Assembly: GCA_965235115.1 (NCBI GenBank)
Contig: OZ249436.1
Location: 25,422,001 to 25,486,000 of the forward strand
DNA length: 64,000 nt
Direction: 5' to 3'
From: Laetmonice hystrix
Taxonomy: Eukaryota
Both the position numbers and the translations under genes were made by a program. Below are positions 3,001-62,478 of the stretch, one piece after another (positions within the stretch are counted from its first letter, which is position 1; each line of letters opens with the position of its first letter). Below the pieces are notes generated by a model. It did not search any database and was not told the DNA's origin. It saw nothing but the letters and a program-made list of their open reading frames with translations.

Positions 3001-6000
3001 AGTCACATTAGCTTGCTGCTTGTCGTAAAAAATGGTGCAGACCATTTCTAAAGTCACAGTACCCCACTCCCGGCCTAATATTACGTTTCAGTATCCATAT
3101 ACGCTGCAAGCGGCAGGAACTCGAATACAGGCCTAAAAGTAACCCCAGTCTAGCAATATCATACTCTCATGCCATATACGAGCTTGTAATTATCTTTAAT
3201 TAATGGGCTCCGCAGCACCAACCCACTGCATTAACATTTGTTTAACAGCTTAACGCACCTTGTAAAAAATTTTCAAGTGCGTAAAAATGCGTGTCCACCT
3301 CCACATACTTTAAAAATCACTATACCCACCCAGCGACATTCACTCTAATACACGCCTAAGAGGAACTTCACTTTCCCATTTGATCCTCCAGCACGTATAG
3401 GATGTTTCAAGTAACATTTATCCACGGTCTGGCCCAATAACGTGCAACAAGGCATAGTAAGTCAATGCGACCTCGCATGTCAAACCTAACCCGCCCCCCA
3501 GCACATGAGGTGGAGATATTCAAATAGCTTGAAAACTAGAATATAGCTTTGCTTAATACCATTATACCATCAACTCGCATTACAGGCCTAATGCGAAGCT
3601 CCCAGCCTAAAACGAGTTTCCAATTAATTTAAAGTTAACAAGATGCACTAATAATCGATTCCAAGCCTAATTAGGCCATTGCTAGTTGGATAACCAAATC
3701 TCATACAAAATACACCCTCCCGGCAGATGACCTGAGAATATTCAACTCTTATGTCCGATATATCCCTGTCCGCTTAGTAGCACCCAGCCGGGCCCCCATT
3801 TTGACATTGCAACACCAATACACCAAGTGCCCAGCTAACAGCACAAATAACAGGATTCAGGGCTTCCTACCACGTTACAAGTCACAATAGATTGCTGCCT
3901 GTCGTAAAAATATACCAGACCATTTTAAAAAGTCACAGAACCCTAATCCGGCCCTAATATGTCACTCCCAGTACCAATACACTCTGGAAGCACCATCAAC
4001 TGAAATTCAGGCCTAGAACCCACCTCTCTCTACCAATATCATGCACCTAGTCCGTATACGAGGTTGTAATTTACTTTAATGAACGGGTTGCGCCGCAGCA
4101 ACCCACTCTGGTCTTTGCAATCTTTTTCAATATGCGTTAACATTTGTAACCAGCTCAACGCGCCTTGTAAAATTTTTCAAAGTGCGTAAAAGTGTGTGTC
4201 CACCCCGTCACGCTTTCCAAACCACTATACCCACCGAGCGACATCCACTCATATACAGGCTTCGACCGATCCTCACTGTGCCAATAATCCGCCACAAGGC
4301 AAATTCAGTCAATGCAAGCTGGAAAATCGAATGTCAAACCTAATGCTCCCCCCCCAGCACGTTAACTGAAAATAATCAACTAGCTTGAAAACTAGAATAT
4401 AGCTTTGTTTAGCTAACAATCTACTCTCCCAGCGCCATCAACTCGCATACAGGCGTAAAAGCAAACGCACTGCCCCATATAATGCTCCCAGCCTAAAACG
4501 ATGTTGCAATTAATTTAAAATTAACAAGATGCACTAGTAATCCGATCCAAGCCTAATTACGTCATTGCTAGTTTCATAACCAAATCTCACAGAAAATACC
4601 CCACCCGCGCACATAACCTGAAAATATTCAACTTTTATCTCCAATGTATCCCTGTGCACCTAGTAGCACCCAAGCGGGCCCAATTTTGACATTCCAACAC
4701 AAATACCGCAAATACCCGCCTAATGGCACAAAAAACTTTCTACCCCGTTGCAAGTCACATTAGCTTGCTGCTTGTCGTAAAAAATGGTGCAGACCATTTC
4801 TAAAGTCACAGTACCCCACTCCCGGCCTAATATTACGTTTCAGTATCCATATACGCTGCAAGCGGCAGGAACTCGAATACAGGCCTAAAAGTAACCCCAG
4901 TCTAGCAATATCATACTCTCATGCCATATACGAGCTTGTAATTATCTTTAATTAATGGGCTCCGCAGCACCAACCCACTGCATTAACATTTGTTTAACAG
5001 CTTAACGCACCTTGTAAAAAATTTTCAAGTGCGTAAAAATGCGTGTCCACCTCCACATACTTTAAAAATCACTATTTGATTCTCCAGCACGTATAGGATG
5101 TTTCAAGTAACATTTATCCACGGTCTGGCCCAACAACGTGCAACAAGGCATAGTAAGTCAATGCGAGCTCGCATGTCAAACCTAACCCGCCCCCCAGCAC
5201 ATGAGCTGAAAATATTCAAATAGCTTGAAAACTAGAATATAGCTTTGCTTAATACCATTATACCATCAACTCGCATTACAGGCCTAATGCGAAGCTCCCA
5301 GCCTAAAACGAGTTTCCAATTAATTTAAAGTTAACAAGATGCACTAATAATCGATTCCAAGCCTAATTAGGCCATTGCTAGTTGGATAACCAAATCTCAT
5401 ACAAAATACACCCTCCCGGCAGATGACCTGAGAATATTCAACTCTTATGTCCGATATATCCCTGTCCGCTTAGTAGCACCCAGCCGGGCCCCCATTTTGA
5501 CATTGCAACACCAATACAGCAAGTGCCCAGCTAACAGCACAAATAACAGGATTCAGGGCTTCCTACCACGTTACAAGTCACAATAGATTGCTGCCTGTCG
5601 TAAAAATATACCAGACCATTTTAAAAAGTCACAGGACCCCAATCCGGCCCTAATATGTCACTCCCAGTACCAATAGACGCTGGAAGCACCATCAACTGAA
5701 ATTCAGGCCTAGAACCCACCTCTCTCTACCAATATCATGCACCTAGTCCGTATACGAGGTTGTAATTTACTTTAATCAACGGGCTGCGCCGCAGCAACCC
5801 ACTCTGGTCTTTGCAATCTTTTTCAATATGCGTTAACATTTGTGACCAGCTCAACGCGCCTTGTAAAATTTTTCAAAGTGCGTAAAAGTGTGTGTCCACC
5901 CCGACACGCTTTCCAAACCACTATACCCACCGAGCGACATCCACTCAAATACAGGCTTCGACCGATCCTCACTGTGCCAATAATCCGGCACAAGGCAAAT

Positions 6001-33000: not shown

Positions 33001-35717
33001 GAGCTCGCATGTCAAACCTAACCCGCCCCCCAGCACATGAGCTGGAGATATTCAAATAGCTTGAAAACTAGAATATAGCTTTGCTTAATACCATTATACC
33101 ATCAACTCGCATTACAGGCCTAATGCGAAGCTCCCAGCCTAAAACGAGTTTCCAATTAATTTAAAGTTAACAAGATGCACTAATAATCGATTCCAAGCCT
33201 AATTAGGCCATTGCTAGTTGGATAACCAAATCTCATACAAAATACACCCTCCCGGCAGATGACCTGAGAATATTCAACTCTTATGTCCGATATATCCCTG
33301 TCCGCTTAGTAGCACCCAGCCGGGCCCCCATTTTGACATTGCAACACCAATACAGCAAGTGCCCAGCTAAGAGCACAAATAACAGGATTCAGGGCTTCCT
33401 ACCACGTTACAAGTCACAATAGATTGCTGCCTGTCGTAAAAATATACCAGACCATTTTAAAAAGTCACAGAACCCCAATCCGGCCCTAATATGTCACTCC
33501 CAGTACCAATACACTCTGGAAGCACCATCAACTGAAATTCAGGCCTAGAACCCACCTCTCTCTACCAATATCATGCACCTAGTCCGTATACGAGGTTGTA
33601 ATTTCCTTTAATCAACGGGCTGCGCCGCAGCAACCCACTCTGGTCTTTGCAATCTTTTTCAATATGCGTTAACATTTGTGACCAGCTCAACGCGCCTTGT
33701 AAAATCTTTCAAAGTGCGTAAAAGTGTGTGTCCACCCCGACACGCTTTCCAAACCACTATACCCACCGAGCGACATCCACTCAAATACAGGCTTCGACCG
33801 ATCCTCACTGTGCCAATAATCCGCCACAAGGCAAATTCAGTCAATGCAAGCTGGAAAATCGAATGTCAAACCTAATGCTCCCCCCCCCAGCACGTTAACT
33901 GAAAATAATCAACTAGCTTGAAAACTAGAATATAGCTTTGTTTAGCTAACAATCTACTCTCCCAGCGCCATCAACTCGCATACAGGCGTAAAAGCAAACG
34001 CACTGCCCCATATAATGCTCCCAGCCTAAAACGATGTTGCAATTAATTTAAAATTAACAAGATGCACTAGTAATCCGATCCAAGCCTAATTACGTCATTG
34101 CTAGTTTCATAACCAAATCTCACAGAAAATACCCCACCCGCGCACATAACCTGAAAATATTCAACTTTTATCTCCAATGTATCCCTGTGCACCTAGTAGC
34201 ACCCAAGCGGGCCCAATTTTGACATTCCAACACAAATACCGCAAATACCCGCCTAATGGCACAAAAAACTTTCTACCCCGTTGCAAGTCACATTAGCTTG
34301 CTGCTTGTCGTAAAAAATGGTGCAGACCATTTCTAAAGTCACAGTACCGCACTCCCGGCCTAATATTACGTTTCAGTATCCATATACGCTGCAAGCGGCA
34401 GGAACTCGAATACAGGCCTAAAAGTAACCCCAGTCTAGCAATATCATACTCTCATGCCATATACGAGCTTGTAATTATCTTTAATTAATGGGCTCCGCAG
34501 CACCAACCCACTGCATTAACATTTGTTTAACAGCTTAACGCACCTTGTAAAAAATTTTGAAGTGCGTAAAAATGCGTGTCCACCTCCACATACTTTAAAA
34601 ATCACTATTTGATTCTCCAGCACGTATAGGATGTTTCAAGTAACATTTATCCACGGTCTGGCCCAATAACGTGCAACAAGGCATAGTAAGTCAATGCGAG
34701 CTCGCATGTCAAACCTAACCCGCCCCCCAGCACATGAGCTGAAAATATTCAAATAGCTTGGAAAAACTAGAATATAGCTTTGCTTAATACCATTATACCA
34801 TCAACTCGCATTACAGGCCTAATGCGAAGCTCCCAGCCTAAAACGAGTTTCCAATTAATTTAAAGTTAACAAGATGCACTAATAATCGATTCCAAGCCTA
34901 ATTAGGCCATTGCTAGTTGGATAACCAAATCTCATACAAAATACACCCTCCCGGCAGATGACCTGAGAATATTCAACTCTTATGTCCGATATATCCCTGT
35001 CCGCTTAGTAGCACCCAGCCGGGCCCCCATTTTGACATTGCAACACCAATACAGCAAGTGCCCAGCTAACAGCACAAATAACAGGATTCAGGGCTTCCTA
35101 CCACGTTACAAGTCACAATAGATTGCTGCCTGTCGTAAAAATATACCAGACCATTTTAAAAAGTCACAGAACCCCAATCCGGCCCTAATATGTCACTCCC
35201 AGTACCAATACACGCTGGAAGCACCATCAACTGAAATTCAGGCCTAGAACCCACCTCTCTCTACCAATATCATGCACCTAGTCCGTATACGAGGTTGTAA
35301 TTTACTTTAATCAACGGGCTGCGCCGCAGCAACCCACTCTGGTCTTTGCAATCTTTTTCAATATGCGTTAACATTTGTAACCAGCTCAACGCGCCTTGTA
35401 AAATTTTTCAAAGTGCGTAAAAATGTGTGTCCACCCCGACACGCTTTCCAAACCACTATACCCACCGAGCGACATCCACTCAAATACAGGCTTCGACCGA
35501 TCCTCACTGTGCCAATAATCCGCCACAAGGCAAATTCAGTCAATGCAAGCTGGAAAATCGAATGTCAAACCTAATGCTCCCCCCCCCCAGCACGTTAACT
35601 GAAAATAATCAACTAGCTTGAAAACTAGAATATAGCTTTGTTAAGCTAACAATCTACTCTCCCAGCGCCATCAACTCGCATACAGGCGTAAAAGCAAACG
35701 CACTGCCCCATATAATG
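1..35717. repeat. ~1.75-kb satellite tandem array, left segment (monomers 1-21)
   Basis: The motif ggcatagtaagtcaatgcg recurs at about 1, 1697, 3451, 5147, 6901, 8653, 10408, 12164, 13863, 15617, 17372, 19125, 20879, 22633, 24386, 26137, 27778, 29531, 31230, 32983 and 34680. Copies differ only by scattered SNPs, poly-C length and a few deletions. Confidence 0.98.
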
Positions 35718-35945
35718 AATGAGACTGAGACCGAATTCGTTTGGACTAAAAATGTTTTATTACGACATTATAAGACACAGATAAAATAATAAAAGAAATG
35801 TTGGTATATATGATAAGAGGGGTAATAAAACATTGATGAGGGTTTTCGTGGGAAATATATTTTTAAAGAGAGGGTTGTTTAGTGGAGTGAGTTTAATGGT
35901 TAGTAAGATCGTTTGAGATTTCAGTTTCTTTATTCTTAATGGCCA
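35718..35945 (-). repeat. Split direct repeat B2 (228 bp, 3' terminus of the YR element)
   Basis: Matches 36152-36379 with one visible mismatch (gatgagggtt vs gatgagagtt). Confidence 0.93.
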
Positions 35946-35994
35946 GTGGGAGGGATTTAGGGTAATGAAAGGTTAATATGGGATGGGTGGGAGG

Positions 35995-36151
35995 GTAAAA
36001 GACGTGTGTGTCGGAGTGTGGCGGAGAGGAAAGTGACCGAGTGAGAGTCGGGGAAGGTGAAGGAAAGTTGGGGCCGGAAGTGACGTATAGATTGCGGATA
36101 TTCAAGTCTCAGACCATTCATTATGCGCAATGAAATACATTACGGACAATG
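35995..36151 (-). repeat. Split direct repeat A2 (157 bp, internal)
   Basis: Identical by eye to 39292-39448. It abuts B1 through AATG at 36148-36151. Confidence 0.93.
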
Positions 36152-36379
36152 AATGAGACTGAGACCGAATTCGTTTGGACTAAAAATGTTTTATTACGAC
36201 ATTATAAGACACAGATAAAATAATAAAAGAAATGTTGGTATATATGATAAGAGGGGTAATAAAACATTGATGAGAGTTTTCGTGGGAAATATATTTTTAA
36301 AGAGAGGGTTGTTTAGTGGAGTGAGTTTAATGGTTAGTAAGATCGTTTGAGATTTCAGTTTCTTTATTCTTAATGGCCA
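36152..36379 (-). repeat. Split direct repeat B1 (228 bp, internal)
   Basis: Copy of 35718-35945. On the minus strand it begins at the (duplicated) YR stop codon, followed by AATAAA. Confidence 0.93.
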
Positions 36380-36679
36380 AACATTGAAGTAAAAGCATCG
36401 GGGACTGCAGTGTAGAGCTTCTTGGGAACGTAGGCATTAATAGCTGCCGATGACCACGTCCCGTGGCGCATTATGTCCGCCTGCGGCACACCGACCCGGG
36501 CGCAAGCCTGGGCGCCACAGTTTCTTTATTCTTAATGGCCAAACATTGAAGTAAAAGCATCGGGGACTGCAGTGTAGAGCTTCTTGGGAACGTAGGCATT
36601 AATAGCCGCCGATGACCACGTCCCGTGGCGCATTATGTCCGCCTGCGGCACACCGACCCGGGCGCAAGCCTGGGCGCCA
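36356..36679. repeat. 162-bp tandem duplication of the YR 3' end, stop codon and AATAAA
   Basis: 36356-36517 matches 36518-36679 with one visible mismatch (tagctgccg vs tagccgccg). Confidence 0.92.
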
Positions 36680-37668
36680 GACCGGCGGAGTGAGTGGACC
36701 GTCGCTGAGTTCGCTGCCGGATGCCCCAGAACGAGTAGGATGGCCCGGAGGTATGTCTCCAACCTTGTCGGGGTCAGCGGAGTAGATGGATCCAGCATGA
36801 AGGCCGAGCTATCGGCTGATAAAGGAACATCTCGTATATAGCGTCTCCACGCCAGGACCGGGCAATATCTTGAACCCACATATGGGACAGGGATCGCCAC
36901 CCTGTCCGCTGGATCGGAGATCGTTTTGGACGAATTGACGGTGAGCCATATGCGATCGCCTGCGTCAGAGACGTCCCCCCGAGTAAGCGTGTGCGGCGTG
37001 GGGCCAGAAGGCCCAGGGAGTAAGTTGGACTGTCGGAGCAAGGAGCAGAAACCCATAAGAAGTACGGCCCGGGCTGTTAAAGCGTGTCCGCCCAAAGTTT
37101 CTAATATATCACAGACATCTTTAATGTCCTGATAAGATAGGGCTGGTGCCCGGCGCGGTACATGAGACGATAGTCGTGCGACTCCTTTGATCATGGTTGC
37201 AATGTCTGGAGCCGTAAAGTTTGTGACGTCGCCCCCGGATCCAGCGACGTACGTTTTTGCCCCTGAGAGATAGTTTTTTATTGTAGCCGTGCTTTTAAAA
37301 CTGTATAATTCGGATGTGAAAATACAGTCTAGCTCCACAGGTATAAGGCGAGAAAGACCGTACTGTGACACGAGGGCCTCCGCAGTGTCGGCATATGCTT
37401 TGCTTAAATGGTAGCGACTGAGTGCGTCCGCCAGAACTAAGTCGACCCCCGGCTGGTGATATACCATTATTTCAAGCTGATTCGTGGCTGCGACCATCCA
37501 TAGCTCACGTGCGCATGCGGCGAGTACGGGGTCCTTTGTTTTTCCTGTGTTCAGCGCATACATTGCGGCCATATTGTCCGTTTTTACCCTGACCGTGTGA
37601 GCTACCAGGCGTTGAGGAACGAGAGTTTTAACTGCCATTACAACGTTTATAGCTTCGGTAAGGTACAT
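36532..37668 (-). CDS. Partial DIRS-type RNase H fused in frame to a tyrosine recombinase (378 aa)
   Basis: The N-terminal part has EAINVV..VKTDNMAA..ARELW..HQPG..LADALSR, the C-terminal motifs of DIRS-type RNase H. The C-terminal part has LLRQSNL (R), SSKT (K), CPV, HSLRR (H-x-x-R), GTWSS (W) and NAY (Y), a full YR catalytic set. Confidence 0.9.
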   Translation of the reverse strand: MYLTEAINVVMAVKTLVPQRLVAHTVRVKTDNMAAMYALNTGKTKDPVLAACARELWMVAATNQLEIMVYHQPGVDLVLADALSRYHLSKAYADTAEALVSQYGLSRLIPVELDCIFTSELYSFKSTATIKNYLSGAKTYVAGSGGDVTNFTAPDIATMIKGVARLSSHVPRRAPALSYQDIKDVCDILETLGGHALTARAVLLMGFCSLLRQSNLLPGPSGPTPHTLTRGDVSDAGDRIWLTVNSSKTISDPADRVAIPVPYVGSRYCPVLAWRRYIRDVPLSADSSAFMLDPSTPLTPTRLETYLRAILLVLGHPAANSATVHSLRRSGAQACARVGVPQADIMRHGTWSSAAINAYVPKKLYTAVPDAFTSMFGH

Positions 37669-38050
37669 TAGGAACGATTTCGGAGTCGATGTGCGGTTTA
37701 GTTTGAGTAGATCGGGGTGTAAGGTGAACTGTGCCCAGTGTGGTGGCGGCTGCGGTGTGGGATCCCTGAGGGATACAGAGCCCCGTCTTCAGAGGTTCGG
37801 TGAAAGGTTCGTTCAGTGTGCCAGTATTCAGGGTTGCTGTGGAATGGTACGGAGAAATTACAGTGTGGGGCCCTTGAGGGATACAGAGCCCCGTCTTCAG
37901 AGGTTCGGTGAGAGGTTCGTTCAGTGTACAAGTATTCAGGGTTGCTGTAGAGTGGTACGGAGAAATTACAGTGCGGGGCAGAGTCTCGGAGACGGTCGGA
38001 GTGGTGGAGCGACAATGGTTTTCTGGGCGAGTATCGGACTCCCCAGTCAA
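37669..38050 (-). pseudogene. Probable N-terminal remnant of the pol ORF (RT domain missing)
   Basis: An open Thr/Pro-rich frame starts at the gag stop, which is the pol position in DIRS/Ngaro elements. It has no RT motifs (no Y-x-DD) and is out of frame with the RNase H part. Confidence 0.5.
37766..37975. repeat. 108-bp tandem duplication (36-aa repeat)
   Basis: ggatacagagccccgtcttcagagg occurs at 37771 and 37879. It translates as TVISPYHSTATLNT..LNEP.TEPLKTGLCIPQG twice. Confidence 0.92.
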
Positions 38051-39285
38051 TTCGGAAACCCCAATGAGGATGGTTGGTTGTCCTGCCTATCGAATGTTTT
38101 TGAACGGCATACGTTAAGAGAGTGAGGAAGGAACAAACACTTTTTCAAGAGGCAGAATTCGCATACGTGGAGTTGACGGTATCCATTCGCAACGTGGTGT
38201 GAGTGTTGGATGCATGTTCCTCGCTGATACGCACGACAAGGTGGTGCAGGCTTGGCAGATTTAAGAAAGTCTGGTATGTCGACGCTAACGGTCGTATTGT
38301 TATCGTTCTGTTGCGGTGTGGAGTTTTGTGTCCCCATGTGTGATAGGCGAGTCTGAAGGCGGTCAATTTCATATGTGTTAGACCATGAGAGCTTCTTGTC
38401 GAAAATCTGCGCGCACACCTCTTCCGACCAGGCCCTGACTGATAGCCAGTCATATGTCCTGGCGTCATTAACAACTTGCTCAATATGTCTGTTCATAAGA
38501 TTTACAGTTTCATTGTCCTGGACAAGCCTCGTCATTTGAGTGAAACCCCATACATATTCGGCGATAGTGCACTCTGCAAGTTCGAGTTTGACATGCTTTG
38601 GTCCCCGCGTCACAAACTGGTGTGGAAATGCTCCAGACTGCTTACCTTTTCCAGCTGTAGGGAATGGGGACACTACGGCGTGGAGAGCGTCAGCCACGCG
38701 ACGTGCTAATATTGGGTCCGCCTCGAGCTGTGCTACGGTGGTTGGCGGGTTCCCCGCGCGCTCGTGGTGCGTTGTGGGTCTGCTGGGGTGGGACTTGGGT
38801 GGCGAGGAATGACGGGCAACCAGCGTCCTATCGTCTGCCCCCAGGCCGGTGAACCTTTCCGGTAGTGAAAGTGCCTGAGGGGCGTGGGCGGTCCTGTCGG
38901 CTGTTTCGCAGTGTCGGTGGTCAGCCGGCGGGGTGCTTGGTATGTCGGGCTGGCGGGAGTTGGTGACCCGTTGGCCTTGTACTGTTCCTCCAAGTTCAGA
39001 CGAGGCGTCGGCGGGTTCCAGTCGGGGTGGTGGGGTAGTATGACGAGCTTCTGGAGTGGTGTGGTCAGGCGGTGGTAGTTGGCCGCTTAGTCGAGTGAGA
39101 AGTTCTGTAATGTTTGTTAGCTTACTTTCAATATTGTTAACTCTGTGGCTGACTTGTCCAATTGCGTCGGCATTACTTGCGACGGTTGTTCGACGCTGAG
39201 CCCGAGGGGTCTGCGGCTGGCTTTCCTCGTCGGTTTCTTCGAGTGGTGTGTGTCGCCGTGTTATCGTTTTCTTTGTGCGCCCCAT
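38047..39285 (-). CDS. Gag-like protein of the YR retroelement (412 aa from the ATG at 39285)
   Basis: The first ATG lies just downstream of A1. The protein has a coiled-coil-like segment (VSHRVNNIESKLTNITELLTRL), a Pro/Thr-rich linker, a helical YDWLSVRAW..LSW region and a C-terminal Cys/His cluster (CRAYQRGTC...HVCEFC...HSLNVC). Confidence 0.82.
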   Translation of the reverse strand: MGRTKKTITRRHTPLEETDEESQPQTPRAQRRTTVASNADAIGQVSHRVNNIESKLTNITELLTRLSGQLPPPDHTTPEARHTTPPPRLEPADASSELGGTVQGQRVTNSRQPDIPSTPPADHRHCETADRTAHAPQALSLPERFTGLGADDRTLVARHSSPPKSHPSRPTTHHERAGNPPTTVAQLEADPILARRVADALHAVVSPFPTAGKGKQSGAFPHQFVTRGPKHVKLELAECTIAEYVWGFTQMTRLVQDNETVNLMNRHIEQVVNDARTYDWLSVRAWSEEVCAQIFDKKLSWSNTYEIDRLQTRLSHMGTQNSTPQQNDNNTTVSVDIPDFLKSAKPAPPCRAYQRGTCIQHSHHVANGYRQLHVCEFCLLKKCLFLPHSLNVCRSKTFDRQDNQPSSLGFPN

Positions 39286-39291
39286 TGCAGT

Positions 39292-39448
39292 GTAAAAGAC
39301 GTGTGTGTCGGAGTGTGGCGGAGAGGAAAGTGACCGAGTGAGAGTCGGGGAAGGTGAAGGAAAGTTGGGGCCGGAAGTGACGTATAGATTGCGGATATTC
39401 AAGTCTCAGACCATTCATTATGCGCAATGAAATACATTACGGACAATG
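39292..39448 (-). repeat. Split direct repeat A1 (157 bp, 5' terminus of the YR element)
   Basis: Identical by eye to 35995-36151. It ends at AATG 39445-39448, after which the satellite resumes. Confidence 0.93.
39371..39383. promoter_or_regulatory. Overlapping ETS/CRE-like motif CCGGAAGTGACGT in repeat A (second copy at 36074-36086), candidate internal promoter element
   Basis: Motif match about 90 bp upstream of the gag ATG. Function is inferred only. Confidence 0.4.
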
Positions 39449-54276: not shown

Positions 54277-55409
54277 GGCACGTTGTAACCGAAGGTTCAA
54301 CGAATTTTATGCAGGAAAACACGAGAGGCCTACTGTCTGAATCAGTGCCGTCATGGCAACAACTTTCTGGGTCATGTGTTGAATAATTATGTCACGCCGA
54401 ATCCCATCATGCATCATGCCGCAACCGGTTGACGACCGTGACGTTGTCCTTGAATCTTCCCACTTTCTTCAAGACACGCAGGGTAACGGTTTTCAGTGGC
54501 AACGGTCGCATTTTATCACTCTCAATCGTCTTAATTTTAGTTCATCCGAGGTTGAGTTTCTAGTCACGTCTTTATAAAATCGTCACCCGTCTTTTGTACT
54601 TGCTTTCATTTTCTAGGCATAGTCTGTTGGCCTAGGTTTAGCCATCTTTATATCTCCTAGGAGTTAGGCCTAGGCTAAGCAAAATGGCGTCTGGGTACGT
54701 CTTGATTCTTAATCTTAGTCTTAGTGACAGCATTCATCTTCGTCGTCCTGTCACAGATACCCAAGGGAGTTTAGTTCTAGAGTGAATCCGAATTTAACGT
54801 CACCGTTAGTTCTTTACTATCGGGGTAGATCTAGATCTAGTGAATGTGGCTGTAGTTTTGTTATAGACTAGATTAGTTGATTGATAATGATAGACACTAG
54901 GCTAGTCAGGCTAGCCGGTCTAACTGGATCGACTTGTCTTATGTCATGAATTTGATACTTAGCCTGAGCCTACATTAGCGTTTAATCTAACGACGTTAGT
55001 TATGACTATATCTACTAGTTTAGAATCTAGTAACCTCGTTAGTCACTTATTGACTTAGTGTTTGACGTTGGCTCTGAGGACGGGTGGCTACGTGTCGTGT
55101 CTATTAAAATGCCATTGAATTTTGTCGTGCGGGAGTAGATCTACAAGAGTGACCGTTTTGTTTTCATCCATCATTCATTGGTTATTTCCTATTGCCAATG
55201 TTTCCCTACACATGTAAATTATTGTATAAATGCTACCTTAACCTGATATATTATTACATTAAATTCATTCTATTGGCCACGGTTTCTTTATACATTATTG
55301 ATACATTACAATTTACAGCATATTTGTGAATGATGATTGATATGTATCCCGTATATACTGTACATTACGGGGCCTGTTTAATTAATCTGGCTACGTGTGT
55401 TGTATATAT

Positions 55410-58400
55410 ATATTTTTTATTGCTACATTATACACCTTATGATTGCTATATTTAGACCTTATTGGGAGACCATTTGGTTCTCTTTATTATTGGTCACATT
55501 TTATTACGATTGATATTAATGGGATTTAGATCCCTTATTTTTGTGTTGGGCTCTGTCATCGAGAGACTATCATGTTTTCTCCTTGATCAGTAGTTCCAAT
55601 TTTCTTTTCAGTCTTTATATGTTTATTATTGCTACAGTATACACCTTATTATTGCTATAGACCTTATTGGGAGACCGTTTGGTTCTCTTCATTATTGGTC
55701 ACATTTTATTATTTTTGATATTAATGGGATTAATATCCCGTATATTCTTGCGTTGGGCTCTGTCATTGAGAGACTATACTGTTTTCTCTTTGATCAGTAG
55801 TTCCAATTTTCTTTTCAGTCTTTATATGTTTATTATTGCTACATTATACACCTTTATTATTGCTATAGACCTTATCGGGAGACCGTTTGGTTCTCTTCAT
55901 TATTGGTCACATTTTATTATGATTGATAAAAATGGGATTTATATCCCGTATTTTTGTGTTGGGCTCTGTCATCGAGAGACTATCATGTTTTCTCTTTGAT
56001 CAGTAGTTCCAATTTTCTTTTCAGTCTTTATATATTTATTATTGCTACATTATACACCTTATTATTGCTATAGACCTTATTGGGAGACCGTTTGGTTCTC
56101 TTCATTATTGGTCACATTTTATTATGATTGATATTAATGGGATTTATATCCCGTATTTTTGTGTTGGGCTCTGTCATCGAGAGACTATCATGTTTTCTCT
56201 TTGATCAGCAGTTCTAATTTTCTTTCCAGTCTTTATATGTTTGTTATTGCTACATTATACACCTTATTATTGCTATAGACCTTATTGGGAGACCGTTTGG
56301 TTCTCTTCATTATTGGTCACATTTTATTATGATTGATATTAATGGGATTTATATCCCGGATTTTTGTTTTGGGCTCTGTCATCGAGAGACTATCATGTTT
56401 TCTCTTTGATCAGCAGTTCCAATTTTCTTTTCAGTCTTTATATGTTTATTATTGCTACATTATACACCTTATTATTGCTATAGACCTTATTGGGAGACCG
56501 TTTGGTTCTCTTCATTATTGGTCACATTTTATTATGATTGATATTAATGGGATTTATATCCCGGATTTTTGTTTTGGGCTCTGTCATCGAGAGACTATCA
56601 TGTTTTCTCTTTGATCAGCAGTTCCAATTTTCTTTTCAGTCTTTATATGTTTATTATTGCTACATTATACACCTTATTATTGCTATAGACCTTATTGGGA
56701 GACCGTTTGGTTCTCTTCATTATTGGTCACATTTTATTATGATTGATATTAATGGGATTTATATCCCGTTTATATATTTTTGCGTTGGGCTCTGTCATCG
56801 AGAGACTATACTGTTTTCTCTTTGATCAGTAGTTCCAATTTTCTTTTCAGTCTTTATATGTTTGTTATTGCTACATTATACACCTTATTATTGCTATAGA
56901 CCTTATTGGGAGACCGTTTGGTTCTCTTCATTATTGGTCACATTTTATTATGATTGATTGATATTAATGGGATTTATATCCCGCATATATATTTTTGTGT
57001 TGGGCTCTGTCATCGAGAGACTATCATATTTTCTCTTTGATCAGTAGTTCCAATTTTCTTTTCAGTCTTTATATTTTTTATTATTGCTATATTATGGTCG
57101 ATTCTCACCAACTGTCGACAACTGGAAATTCGCATTTCTGTTCTGAATAAATCTTTCAAAGTTATTTTCTTTTGATTTCCCCCTATTCCATCGTATCCGA
57201 CGTGTCGAGATCTTCACAAGGAACCCTACATTTGCATATCTATCATCAAAATCAAGGGAGATAGAGCAAAATTAAACACCAGGAAAGGCCATTTTTCACA
57301 AAAATCGCACAGATCATATAGTTAAAAGCATCTACGATTAGAAAAAATAAAACGAATGTAAGTTTTTTGATGATATTCAAGTAGTCTAAGGATTAAAGAT
57401 ATATTTTTTGTCTGTGCATCATGGGAATATTATTATAGAGATACACTGAGTGACTTGATAATGATTGTGTAATTTTTAGTAGTTACCCGTCATGCTTTAA
57501 TCAGCTGTCCCTGGTTCTCTCCAAAGATAAGGTGCACACGAAAAAAATGTGCTATCATAATGTTTAATACCTCTATATGTATGAAGGAAAAAATAGAGAG
57601 AAAATACCTTAAACATTGAACATGGTTCTCATGGACTTCTAAAACAATGGTTTGGTGTAGTTTTCTCGTAGTTACCCGTATGCACTTTACTATTGTACAT
57701 CTCGTGTAGTTTTTACATTTAATTATCTGTGGTCTGCCTATAATATCTTTATAATGTAAGGGACAATATGTGAAAATGATGAAATTGTACAAGCCCTGTA
57801 ATGGTCAGTACAGAGGTCAAGGTAACCAGCGTGGTTACCCGTCACGCGTGGTTACCCGTATCCCCCTGATGGTAATGCATGGAAATAGTCTGTGCCCGCC
57901 ACCTATCGACGAGATGTGAAAGTACTACGTCAGAAACAGACGTCAAACAACGTCGTTAGGTGTTTGCGGTCGTTTCACCGGCAAGTCTAGTCAACTTATG
58001 GTGTCACGGGTAACTACGGGGCGTACGGGTAACTACGGGGCGTACGGGTAACTACAGTCTTTTAGGGAGGAAAACTGATGTAATAGAAGCTTCGCTGGTG
58101 GTATTACTTTGTTTTAACCTATCAGATATTTGAGTTCTTTATATTTTTACCCAGATATGCCACGAACAAAACCGAAATACATTTATGTAGGTTTAGGGGC
58201 ATACGGGTAACTACACTCCAACTTTGCTCTGTTGCCATAGTTACAGTTTTATGATTTAATGTTCCCAACTTAGCCTGTGGATACCCTAACCCCTGTACTC
58301 TGTGCACACAAAAGATTTTTATTATTATACCAAATTTATTTTTTACCCCATTATCCTACCAGTTGTCGACAGTAGGTGAGAATCGACCTTATACACCTTA

Positions 58401-59471
58401 TTAAATATTGCTATATTTAGACCTTATTGGGAGACCGTTTGGTTCTCTTCATTATTGGTCACTTTTTATTATGATTGATTGATATTAATGGGATTTATAT
58501 CCCGCATATATATTTTTGTGTTGGGCTCTGTCATCGAGAGACTATATTTTCTCTTTGATCAGTAGTTCCAATTTTCTTTTCAGTCTTTATATTTTTATTA
58601 TTGCTATATTATACACCTTATTATTGCTATATTTAGACCTTATTGGGAGACCGTTTGGTTCTCTTCATTATTGGTCACATTTTATTATGATTGATTGATA
58701 TTAATGGGATTTATATCCCGCATATATATTTTTGTGTTGGACTCTGTCATAGAGAGACTATAATGTTTTCTCTTTGATCAGTAGTTCCAGTTTTCTTTTC
58801 AGTCTTTATATTTTTATTATCGCTACATTATACACCTTATTATTGCTATATTTAGACCTTATTGGGAGACCGTTTGGTTCTCTTCATTATTGGTCACATA
58901 TTATTACTATGATTGGAATTAATGGGATTTATATCCCGTATATATTTTTGTGTTGGGCTCTGTCATTGAGAGACTATCATATTTTCTCTTTGATCAGCAG
59001 TTCCAATTTTCTTTTTAGTCTTTATATTTTTATTATTGCTACATTATACACTGTCTTTATTAATGCTGTATTTAGACCTTATTGGGAGACCGTTTGGTTC
59101 TCTTCATTATTGGTCACATTTAATTATGATTGATATTAATGGGATTTATATCCCGTATTTTGTGTTGGGCTCTGTCATCAAGAGACTATCATGTTTTCTC
59201 TTTGATCAGTAGTTCCAACTTTCTATTCAGTCTTTATATTTTTATTATGGCTACATTATACACCTTGTTATTGCTATATTTTAGACCTTATTGGGAGACC
59301 GTTTGGTTCTCTTCATTATTGGTCACATTTGATTATGATTGATATTAATGGGATTTATATCTCGTATATATTTTTGTGTTGGGCTCTGTCATCGGGAAAC
59401 TATTGGGTTTTCTCTTTGATCAGCAGTTCCAATTTTCTTTCAGTCTTTATTATTTTATTATTGCTACATTT
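55410..59471. repeat. AT-rich ~205-219-bp tandem array (~13 copies) inside the Helentron-like element
   Basis: gaccttattgggagacc recurs at about 55455, 55660, 55868, 56073, 56278, 56483, 56688 and 56899. After the nested insertion it recurs at 58420, 58636, 58855, 59074 and 59284. Confidence 0.95.
57096..58388. mobile_element. Non-autonomous TIR DNA transposon (1293 bp), TTAT target duplication, GG...CC ends (Kolobok-like)
   Basis: The 30-bp TIRs at 57096-57125 (ggtcgattctcaccaactgtcgacaactgg) and 58359-58388 match at 29/30. TTAT is present at 57092-57095 and 58389-58392, and the empty repeat reads gctataTTATacacc. No transposase ORF. Confidence 0.88.
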
Positions 59472-59474
59472 TAC

Positions 59475-60835
59475 TTCGCTTCGGCGATACAATATATTAT
59501 TCTATCGGCCTGATATGACATTGGGAGATCGTTGGGCTTATGCTGGATTATCACCCCCTTCTCATGTCTGGCTCACATTTAGTTTACCCTATTGATTTTG
59601 TTTCAATACTTTGTTTTTGCTTTGATGATACAATATATTATTCTATTGGCCTGATATGACATTGAGAGATCGTTGGGCTTATGCTAGATTAGCAGCCTTT
59701 CTCATGTCTGGCTCACATTTTAGCCAATTGATTTTTGTTTCAATACTTTGTGTTTGCTTCGGCGATACAATATATTATTGCTTTTGTCCTGATATGACAT
59801 TAAGGGATCGTTGGGCTTATCCTGGATTAGCAGCCCTTCTCTGAGTTCTCATGTCTGGCTCACATTTACCCAATTGATTTTGTTTCAATACTTTGTGTTT
59901 GCTTCGGCGATACAATATATTATTGCTATTGCCCTGATATGACATTAAGAGATCGTTGGGCTTATGCTGGATTAGCGGCCCCTTCTTATGTCTGGCTCAC
60001 ATTTACCCAATTGATTTGTTTCAATTCATATTATATTACCTCAGTTGATGTGATATATTCACGATACATAGACTCTTTTATTGAGATATTATACTTTGTC
60101 TCTGCTTCAGTGATGCAATATATTTACTTGATATTGGCCTGATATGACATTGAGGGATCGTTGGGCTTATGCTAAATTAGCAGCCCTTCTCATGTCTGGC
60201 TCACATTTACCCGACTGATTTATTTCACTTCATACTGTATTACTTTACTTCATTACTGTTGATGTGACATGTACACGATACATAGTCTTTTTTATTGAGA
60301 TTATATAATATACTTTGTCTTTGCTTCAGTGATGCAATATTATATTTACTTGATATTGGCCTCATATGACATACCAGTCCCAAATTTTCAGTCTCTTAAT
60401 ATTTATATTATTATAATCTTTGCTTCAGTGATACAACATTATAGTTAATTGATATTGGCCGCTGCATATATGCCAATGCCAATGAAAGATCGTTGGGATT
60501 CGACTGTCCTGAGTTTGCAGCCCATCTAGGATCTGGCTCACATTTAACCATTTTATTTACGTTGCAATTACATCGAGTGATGTGATGCGTTCACGACATA
60601 AATGTTGTGTTCACTGTTAGGCTCAGCCATTGAGAGACCATCGAGTGTTCTGTTGGATCAGCGCGACAGCAGTTCAAATGTTCAGTCTCTTTTACATTTA
60701 TTTTACTTTTTGCTGCTTCAGAGATACATTATTATAATATTAACAATATTTTGTTGGCCGTATATGCCATTGGGAGATCGTGGGTTTCCCCTGGATTAGC
60801 AGCCTATCAGTATCACATGTGTGCCTAACATTTGA
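59475..60835. repeat. Degenerate ~140-bp (up to ~205-bp) tandem array
   Basis: gatatgacatt..gatcgttgggcttatgct..tctcatgtctggctcacattt recurs at about 59512, 59653, 59791, 59936 and 60141. Decayed copies lie near 60470 and 60765. Confidence 0.85.
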
Positions 60836-62012
60836 TTTACGTCCCATTTATATTATATTACATTTATGTTATTATACATGTACATATGTATTATTATTAC
60901 ATGTAAACCATGGTTTTTCGCCACTGATTGACATATCATCTAGGCTTATCTCTATCATCAAATTCGTAGATATCAGTTTAATTTCATAATCGTATATTAC
61001 GTAACGATTTACATTATGCTAAATGAATTATTCAGTATAATATTATACTTGCCCTATACGGCCAATGTTATACACAACATGAATTATTCAATCTGGGCGT
61101 TTTGTCATTGACTTTGGCTCTACAATGAGCCCTTCAATTCAATCAACTTCAATGAGCGGGTTGTTATCCTGGCCATGTTCCCTTGTATGGCTTCTGTTCA
61201 TGATGGCGACTACACGATTGAGGTATAAGCCCAAGCTCCCACGGAATTCTCCGATCTCCATGCCCCCATGCAAGAGGGAGCGTCTCATTATGGGTCAAGC
61301 GGAACCGGGTCGGCCTCGACTATTTCGCAAGGATTCGCGGCTGGTGTCCAGACGGTTCCCATTTACGACTGTTCAGGGAGGTTGGAGATAGGAGTTCGGC
61401 CCGGCCTGAGCCTCGACTGGGTACTCCAAGTCTCTTCCAGACCATTCTTGCTGTGGCCAGATGCAGTGGTGCAAGAGCAGATCTACGTGTGTGATCTGTA
61501 TGATCATATAATATTAGCAAAGAATGCTTTTCACCAACAATCGCGGTGTCTCCTTGAAACTCCGTATGGACGCTTCAGTTAAAATGGGATTTGGAGCGGT
61601 TTTTCGGATCTGACTAGATAATAGGCCTAGCCGGTGTCCATCTTCGTTGGATCGACAAGATGTTTTTATTGGAGCTATACCTCCATTCTTTTTGCAGTTG
61701 CCCTGTGTGGGGAATATGTTTGAAACTCCATGGTTGAGTTTCATACCATAATATTTGTGACACAATCATTAACTCAACTTGACCTTCAAAGAATCAAGGA
61801 AACAAGGGAAAGCAGATGATTTGCATCGGTTGCAGAATAGGCGTTTCATTTCCCTGCATCCCTGCACTGTGTGTTGTGGGTGGCTCCACCTGCTTGTTCC
61901 AAGCAGGTTAGTGGCCTGCGTCGCCACTCACATTTAACTGTTCAACACATTTTTAACCCTTTAACACATATTTTTGAACGATAATGTTCCTATTTTTAGA
62001 TTTGGGAACATA

Positions 62013-62310
62013 GACATTAATGGTTTCGAGACGGTGCAGTGTGGACTCACTGTCAAGAGTAATACCAATTCATGGACATTTACTTATTGTTACCGTTAGT
62101 TGTTATTTTCTACCATATCTATTCCCATGACAATGCAGTGTGGGCTCATTGTCAAAAATGGGACATTAATGGTTTCGAGACGGTGCAGTGAGGGCTCACT
62201 GTCAAGAGTAATACCAATTCATGGACATTTACTTATTGTTACCGTTAGTTGTAATTTTCTACCATATCTATTCCCATGACAATGCAGTGTGGGCTCATTG
62301 TCAAGAATGG
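62013..62310. repeat. 149-bp tandem duplication near the end of the Helentron-like element
   Basis: gacattaatggtttcgagacggtgcagtg... occurs at 62013 and 62162, near-identical. Confidence 0.9.
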
Positions 62311-62478
62311 GATGGTGACACCCTTTCTGTTCAGAAATAACCTAATTGTCCTAAACCTTTAATTAATGTTGGACACGTGCAGTGTGGGCTCACTGTCCAA
62401 CTTATATTTTTAATATTATAATAAACGGGTGTTGCCCAAATAACAACATTATCTGTTTCCGAGTGTTGCCTGCATAAA

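Follow-up and report, generated by a model that had tools for sequence, protein, structure and literature searches.

The 64,000-nucleotide stretch of Laetmonice hystrix DNA analysed here (the window: assembly GCA_965235115.1, contig OZ249436.1, positions 25,422,001 to 25,486,000 of the forward strand) contains a 3.73-kb retrotransposon that interrupts a satellite array (Table 1). Its repeats stand in the order A1-B1-A2-B2, and the first-pass annotation of this DNA was right to call that scaffold complete, the A copies being identical over 157 nt and the B copies differing at one of 232 bases. It was equally right that gag is open over 412 amino acids (aa) and that reverse transcriptase (RT) is missing, with a short gap between the gag stop and the RNase H remnant, for which we measure 392 bp against the ~380 bp claimed. 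The predicted Gag can be aligned with the Gag of seven sister families, and a Pfam scan gave it no family name. Behind gag come the pol stub, the RNase H remnant and a tyrosine recombinase (YR) in one 418-codon frame, and the stub reaches a stop 8 codons past the RT deletion. Features beyond those first listed are a 162-bp duplication, two 108-bp repeats and the insertion site in the 1.7-kb satellite, whose empty form carries one AATG.

Table 1. Coordinates of the element's features and of its flank, numbered from the first letter of the window.
Feature	Position	Strand	Remarks
Whole element	35714-39448	minus	interrupts satellite
A1 repeat	39292..39448	minus	157 nt, identical to A2; element 5' end starts (C)ATTG
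gag	38047..39285	minus	412 aa, ATG 39285, stop 38047; open in 9/11 copies of class R1
Predicted phase-1 splice donor	38638..38648	minus	gag codon 214, AAG|GTAAG, GT from 38645
pol 5' stub	37655..38086	minus	-1 frame relative to gag; two 108-bp repeats
RT-deletion junction	37654..37657	minus	1430 bp gone, 3-bp microhomology; common to 17 loci
RNase H C-terminal remnant	37305..37654	minus	ATG 37668 starts a 378-aa RNase H::YR frame
YR-deletion junction	37304..37305	minus	199 bp gone; defines class R1 (11 loci)
N-terminally truncated tyrosine recombinase	36532..37304	minus	catalytic R-K-H-R-W-Y retained, Cre-like fold
Tandem duplication, 162 bp	36356-36679	minus	YR 3' end and B1 start; only in classes R1 and R2
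B1 repeat	36148..36379	minus	232 nt
Internal B1|A2 joint	36095..36175	minus	copy of joined ends, ATT core; two-stem hairpin, z -5.7
A2 repeat	35995..36151	minus	157 nt
B2 repeat	35714..35945	minus	element 3' end is CATT, then target AT
Flanking satellite unit, ~1.7 kb	33880..35717	plus	array picks up in register at 39445

Compared with a sibling copy (L033), the window copy has two deletions. One, at 37655/37654, takes out RT along with the start of RNase H; the other, at 37305/37304, takes out a predicted YR splice acceptor together with YR residues ~9-75. Both junctions had been named and both are real, the first of them having been placed, at ~37665, about 10 bp off. An explanation of the two gaps as retrocopied introns was rejected, as the skipped parts have no GT..AG ends and the joints are microhomologous or blunt. 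The catalytic residues of YR are all present, as first noted (R165, K201, H278, R281, W304 and Y312 in the numbering of the 331-aa sibling open reading frame, ORF), but the description of the recombinase as intact cannot be kept: the 199-bp deletion strips residues conserved across 20 homologs, whose counterparts in Cre are residues ~33-80 and which a structure model (mean pLDDT 82.8) shows as three helices, 20-31, 34-53 and 63-76. Cre is the best match of the full sibling YR by sequence (E 5e-6, ~15% identity), and Cre/Tre that of its model in Foldseek (E 1.8e-9, TM ~0.68); Pfam gives a weak match to Phage_integrase (E 0.09-0.15). Cre closes on DNA as a two-domain clamp, and the window copy is without the part that matches Cre residues up to ~80. 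Because a Cre-like clamp has two domains and the N-terminal helices are gone, the capacity to recombine is likely to be lost, and on this modelled fold the window copy's recombinase is probably dead.

By its structure the element is a Ngaro derivative, with split repeats, no methyltransferase and the family order gag-RT/RNase H-YR. The direct split repeats have their internal repeats downstream of YR, and the element has a tyrosine recombinase instead of an integrase of the DDE type. The window copy has no RT/RNase H in the space from gag to YR; siblings do, at 99% identity, and therefore the family has the Ngaro order and the window copy derives from it. The original label, Ngaro/PAT-like, stands in its first half only: Pfam scans of five pol proteins found no methyltransferase family, and sibling pol stops just past RNase H. 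PAT lineages can lose the methyltransferase, according to the available part of PMC4157794, and the Ngaro assignment here rests on structure. A DIRS1-like identity was rejected, the repeats being direct only, with no inverted terminal repeats or internal complementary region. A protein atlas search returned only unnamed RVT_1 clusters.

The family was surveyed in the 627-Mb assembly by four segment searches in which every candidate was scored (16/16, 32/32, 37/37 and 30/30), together with fetched loci. This gave 27 young loci of 97-100% identity. Eleven belong to the window's form, R1, which has both the 1430-bp RT deletion and the 199-bp YR deletion. Seven (R2, two of them with a common flank) share R1's RT deletion and retain the YR 5' end; YR is open in 5/7 of these, and Gag and YR are both open in four. 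One locus (R3) has a different RT deletion. Three loci (Y) have lost 609 bp of YR and keep pol open over 737-741 aa, RVT_1 included, and three more (Y2) have lost 658 bp of RT and have a broken YR. At one (the C19 locus) RT is frameshifted and YR interrupted, and the last is a 5' fragment. The whole RT segment thus occurs at four loci, the Y copies and the C19 locus, and the whole YR core at 19 young loci, none of which has RT. The three Y copies hold the only open RT genes of the family in the assembly, and five R2 copies the only full YR genes. RT and YR are both whole at none of the 27 young loci, which sets complete copies at ~11% of the pool or less (95% bound), alongside RT donors at 3/27 and YR donors at 5/27. 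A 3'-end search, in which 40 of 82 candidates were scored, found no further young locus and only older pieces.

These counts change how the window copy is to be seen. It is not a young one-off deletion copy, since both junctions recur at 11 loci with different flanks, nor an assembly error, since contigs of the sequencing runs, which come from one sample and possibly from the assembly's own source, carry the 1430-bp junction in 4/4 runs and the 199-bp junction in 3/3. Full-length relatives had been expected, and none is whole in the assembly, where the RT-bearing siblings are without the YR core. The alternative first offered, a lineage that is not autonomous and takes its RT in trans, finds support in the same 11 loci, at which one deletion is found in many independent and precise insertions. 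Other relatives were also recorded. An older subfamily of 75-86% identity (L041, L042 and L058-L061, C19) has no RT and stops at B1 without A2-B2, as recombination between B1 and B2 would give. Three tandem 3' fragments at C5:27.29-27.30 Mb (L040, L065; 90-94% identical) hold RT scraps and a partial YR, and solo A-spacer-B pieces (L064:1778-2200, L076, L077 and L078; 83-92% identical) are likely products of recombination between A1 and A2.

The copies moved by retrotransposition. All 11 left flanks of R1 differ, and the ends of copies are base-precise: in the 20 copies with both ends, the target reads ATT, followed by A in 19/20 and T in 18/20. A and B repeats within copies are identical or almost so. 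Mean divergence within classes is 0.37% for R1, 0.32% for Y and 0.63% for R2, compared with ~0.8-1.2% between classes, and each R1, R2 or Y copy has 1-8 private changes. Because the classes are equally young, their flanks different and their ends precise, mobilisation of the RT-less and of the YR-less forms falls in one recent period, and each of them needed an enzyme in trans.

How YR is produced bears on which class could supply it. Ahead of the Cre-like N-terminal domain, the YR frame of the siblings contains no start codon. In 8/9 families of the genome, YR follows a pyrimidine-rich, phase-1 CAG, the ninth copy being frameshifted at that point. The top-scoring gag donor, by a simple, hand-made score, is in phase 1 and mid-gene in 7/8 families. 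Two YR-less copies, Y_C7 and Y_C2, have only two exclusive changes in common, one of which is a 3-bp deletion through the acceptor AG; in a second, unrelated Ngaro family, three YR-less copies share a change of the acceptor AG to AC, one of 18 that they have in common over 2816 sites (P ~0.013). Larger deletions remove the acceptor in R1, R3 and Y2_C8a. The precise loss of the acceptor in YR-dead lineages of two families suggests that it is likely functional. Gene models from other animals point in the same direction: among the best 150 YR matches, four are RefSeq models of 502-549 aa (XP_078682739.1, XP_078660129.1, XP_078682969.1 and XP_077986280.1; three from amphioxus, one from a hemichordate) in which YR begins at residue 182-219, and for two of them the GenBank model of the same element continues Gag with G-K where the RefSeq model jumps to YR. 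The G-K junction of the amphioxus models is homologous to the predicted donor at window gag codon 214. We therefore predict from sequence that YR is made as a spliced Gag(1-214)-YR fusion, which R2 would be able to make and R1 would not. The predicted acceptor that R2 retains is at about base 3710 of locus L046; upstream of R1's remaining YR, no phase-1 acceptor is found among the top-scoring sites. In 38 outside YR frames, dipeptide offsets for the acceptor cluster at -16 to -21, a pattern that has no background control and is not counted as evidence, and longer YR proteins, when searched for directly, yielded two matches. For pol, frameshifting stays the default, pol being in the -1 frame relative to gag in 7/8 families. 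A search of the literature by title and opening of the abstract found neither a spliced Gag-YR nor a mutually complementing YR pair, although the founding Ngaro papers or their supplements may hold precedent. The available parts of PMC4157794, PMC9210276 and PMC3783388 describe Ngaro YR as overlapping, in frame or frameshifted, and do not mention a spliced Gag-YR.

By their alleles, the classes have recombined with each other. The 5' 347 bp of the YR-less copy Y2_C8b bear R2 alleles, each of the four possible combinations of RT and YR deletion is represented, and homoplasy amounts to 20 extra steps, compared with simulated means of 2.5 and 6.4, a value reached in 0/40 runs of each simulation. 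One copy at L035:1508-6695 is split by an inversion at base 347/348 into two parts with alleles of different classes.

We consider the chances even that R1, which we take to be a freeloader, moves with RT lent by the Gag+RT copies (Y) and YR lent by the Gag+YR copies (R2). Under this model, full-length RNAs of all classes would gather in Gag particles, in which the RT of class Y would copy any packaged RNA and restore its ends from the split repeats. YR would be produced as the Gag(1-214)-YR fusion from spliced RNA, and the Gag-YR recombinase would insert the cDNA at (C)ATT-AT. R1 may be the commonest form partly because loss of the acceptor leaves more RNA unspliced and packageable. Action in trans has been described for the RT of DIRS-1 in the part of PMC7192593 available. 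The annotation had the window form supplying its own Gag and recombinase; Gag is indeed open, the recombinase is without its first helices and the predicted acceptor, and the description fits class R2 instead. With complete copies at ~11% or less, split donors would be as common or commoner, even if some complete copies exist, and we are evenly divided on whether trans-complementation is the main present source of the enzymes. A stronger version, rather doubtful in our view, would make the whole family bipartite, its autonomous ancestor gone and an obligate Gag+RT/Gag+YR pair carrying freeloaders; the split would have been easy, YR in Ngaro elements being on this view a separate spliced Gag-YR, and dead-YR lineages would have been selected to destroy the acceptor. 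Taken alone, the window copy is a Ngaro derivative of the usual non-autonomous sort; the surrounding family is a candidate two-part retrotransposon with a well-supported predicted splice.

Several observations weigh against supply by split donors. A recombination test that used distances gave no significant result (p 0.87 and 0.81), and the pattern of exchange could also have arisen by gene conversion from locus to locus. Purifying selection is not clear, with shared changes of 16 nonsynonymous to 7 synonymous in gag and 6 to 4 in the YR core at an expected ratio of ~2.6-2.8; the ratio of nonsynonymous to synonymous rates (dN/dS) across copies, which the first-pass annotation had proposed to estimate, has too few changes behind it to decide. 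The phases of pol acceptors are mixed across families. Other observations, with the same bearing, favour particular rivals and are given with them below.

The most serious rival, and a quite possible one, is an autonomous master with both RT and YR on the unassembled haplotype, in other individuals or recently dead, of which the assembled classes would be passengers. Apparently a single haplotype was assembled, and the runs contain Y_C6 in an empty form, which makes one insertion or more heterozygous. The depth of RT-core contigs, a rough guide rather than a copy number, corresponds to ~5-6 single-copy units in two runs and ~8 in a third, above the four assembled loci, so that there may be RT copies outside the assembly, and these may be complete. 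None of the available run contigs spans both RT and YR. The C19 locus resembles a broken former master, ~1% from all classes. Another family holds YR-less copies with a common junction beside intact ones, and such classes therefore need no mutual dependence. Nevertheless, the bound on complete copies is to be set against RT donors at 3/27 and YR donors at 5/27, and sister families do show intact copies in the same assembly: in two of them, copies with open RT and YR make up 2/3 and 3/6 of those fetched.

A loan of RT, YR or both from a sister family of Ngaro type that is intact (G000 C2:10.17 Mb and C5:19.44 Mb) is unlikely. Its gag, pol and YR are open and its repeats identical, its ends are 73-79% similar to those of the window family, and the two have the CATT core and the two-stem hairpin in common (L051:6525-6610, z -5.2 against -5.7). 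However, its Gag is only 43% identical to that of the window family and its enzymes 59-64% (YR 59%, RT 64%), the young copies match a sibling at 97-100% along their length without any sister-like tract, and exchange was detected only among the family's own classes. No better placed, and unlikely for other reasons, is the first-pass version, by which the RNase H::YR frame of R1 gives a working recombinase and RT alone is needed in trans. The two deletions do leave one in-frame 378-aa ORF with complete catalytic residues, and a single pol-YR frame is described for Ngaro in the available part of PMC3783388. This frame is open in 7/11 R1 copies, so that a working fusion could still be made. Yet it is already broken in 4/11, the Cre-like clamp has lost its three N-terminal helices, no phase-1 acceptor precedes the remaining YR among the top-scoring sites, and 1.6 kb separate the gag start from ATG 37668 behind it. 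That the copies spread through duplicated segments or turnover of the satellite is extremely improbable: two R2 copies (C18c and C18e) do share their left flank and related satellites surround five copies, but the 11 different left flanks refute it for R1, and base-precise ends, the ATT-AT target and freshly homogenised A and B repeats are not what it would leave.

Complementation by split donors, the reading we prefer, has partial counterparts in other systems. In RNA virus segmentation, complementing defective genomes jointly hold all functions; the partners here are instead chromosomal insertions inherited separately, and their dependence is proposed from sequence. Among YR retrotransposons, TOC1 is a non-autonomous split-repeat relative without the enzymes. 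SIRE of VIPER, in the available account (PMC6681497), is likewise a non-autonomous split-repeat relative, which the solo A-spacer-B pieces here resemble, but SIRE is a short non-coding piece, whereas the classes here keep Gag and one whole enzyme. The accessible parts of PMC11302176, PMC9744471 and PMC5738225 describe Gag-keeping non-autonomous long terminal repeat (LTR) elements of cereals as a cooperative complex, in which deletion classes (RLG_Quinta/Cereba, Sabrina and WHAM/Wilma, Giselle/Inga) keep Gag, lose enzymes, co-evolve and recombine. In the cereal elements a known or assumed autonomous partner holds all the enzymes, whereas in the window family each of the two enzymes has a defective class of its own and a tyrosine recombinase serves as the integrase. 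Ngaro elements as far as described in PMC4157794, PMC9210276 and PMC3783388 are alike in the Gag-RT/RNase H-YR order seen in the sister families, in A1-B1-A2-B2 downstream of YR, in the lack of methyltransferase and in a trinucleotide core at the ends; the window family differs in having no complete member in the assembly.

Related derivatives and the surroundings of the element deserve a brief description. In a second Ngaro family, three dispersed copies of the Gag+RT type (L071:5276-5600, L072 and L073) share a 641-bp YR deletion, whose left break coincides in YR position with that of the window family. RT-less or internally deleted derivatives also occur in other Ngaro families (L057:4180-6811, L079, L080 and L082), with near-identical split repeats in L080. 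The tandem repeats of the pol 5' region (37764-37979 in the window) number 1-5 units across the copies of this family and are also found in L054-L056, L067 and L069; unit lengths across several families are 108, ~93, ~81 and ~138 bp. The satellite of the window (1-64000) has a unit of ~1.7 kb made of two ~850-bp halves that are ~61-67% alike; units are 98-99% identical and most have ~54 bp extra. Four R2 copies (L044, L047, L048 and L050, C18) lie within a related satellite, ~72% identical, and C18b seems to occupy a site homologous to that of the window insertion. A second insertion in the window satellite (54277-62476) is 8.2 kb long and AT-rich, with ~205-216-bp and ~140-bp tandem arrays and no ORF of 150 aa; nested in it is a ~1.3-kb piece with 33-bp inverted ends (57093-58391).

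How Ngaro elements express a recombinase without a start codon, and how their proteins act in trans, are largely untested questions, for which this family supplies natural mutants at each step (RT-less, YR-less and acceptor-less) and points to one splice junction that is open to a simple test. If defective classes do sustain each other, this would be a retrotransposon split into co-dependent genomes, and searches for intact copies could declare an active family dead.

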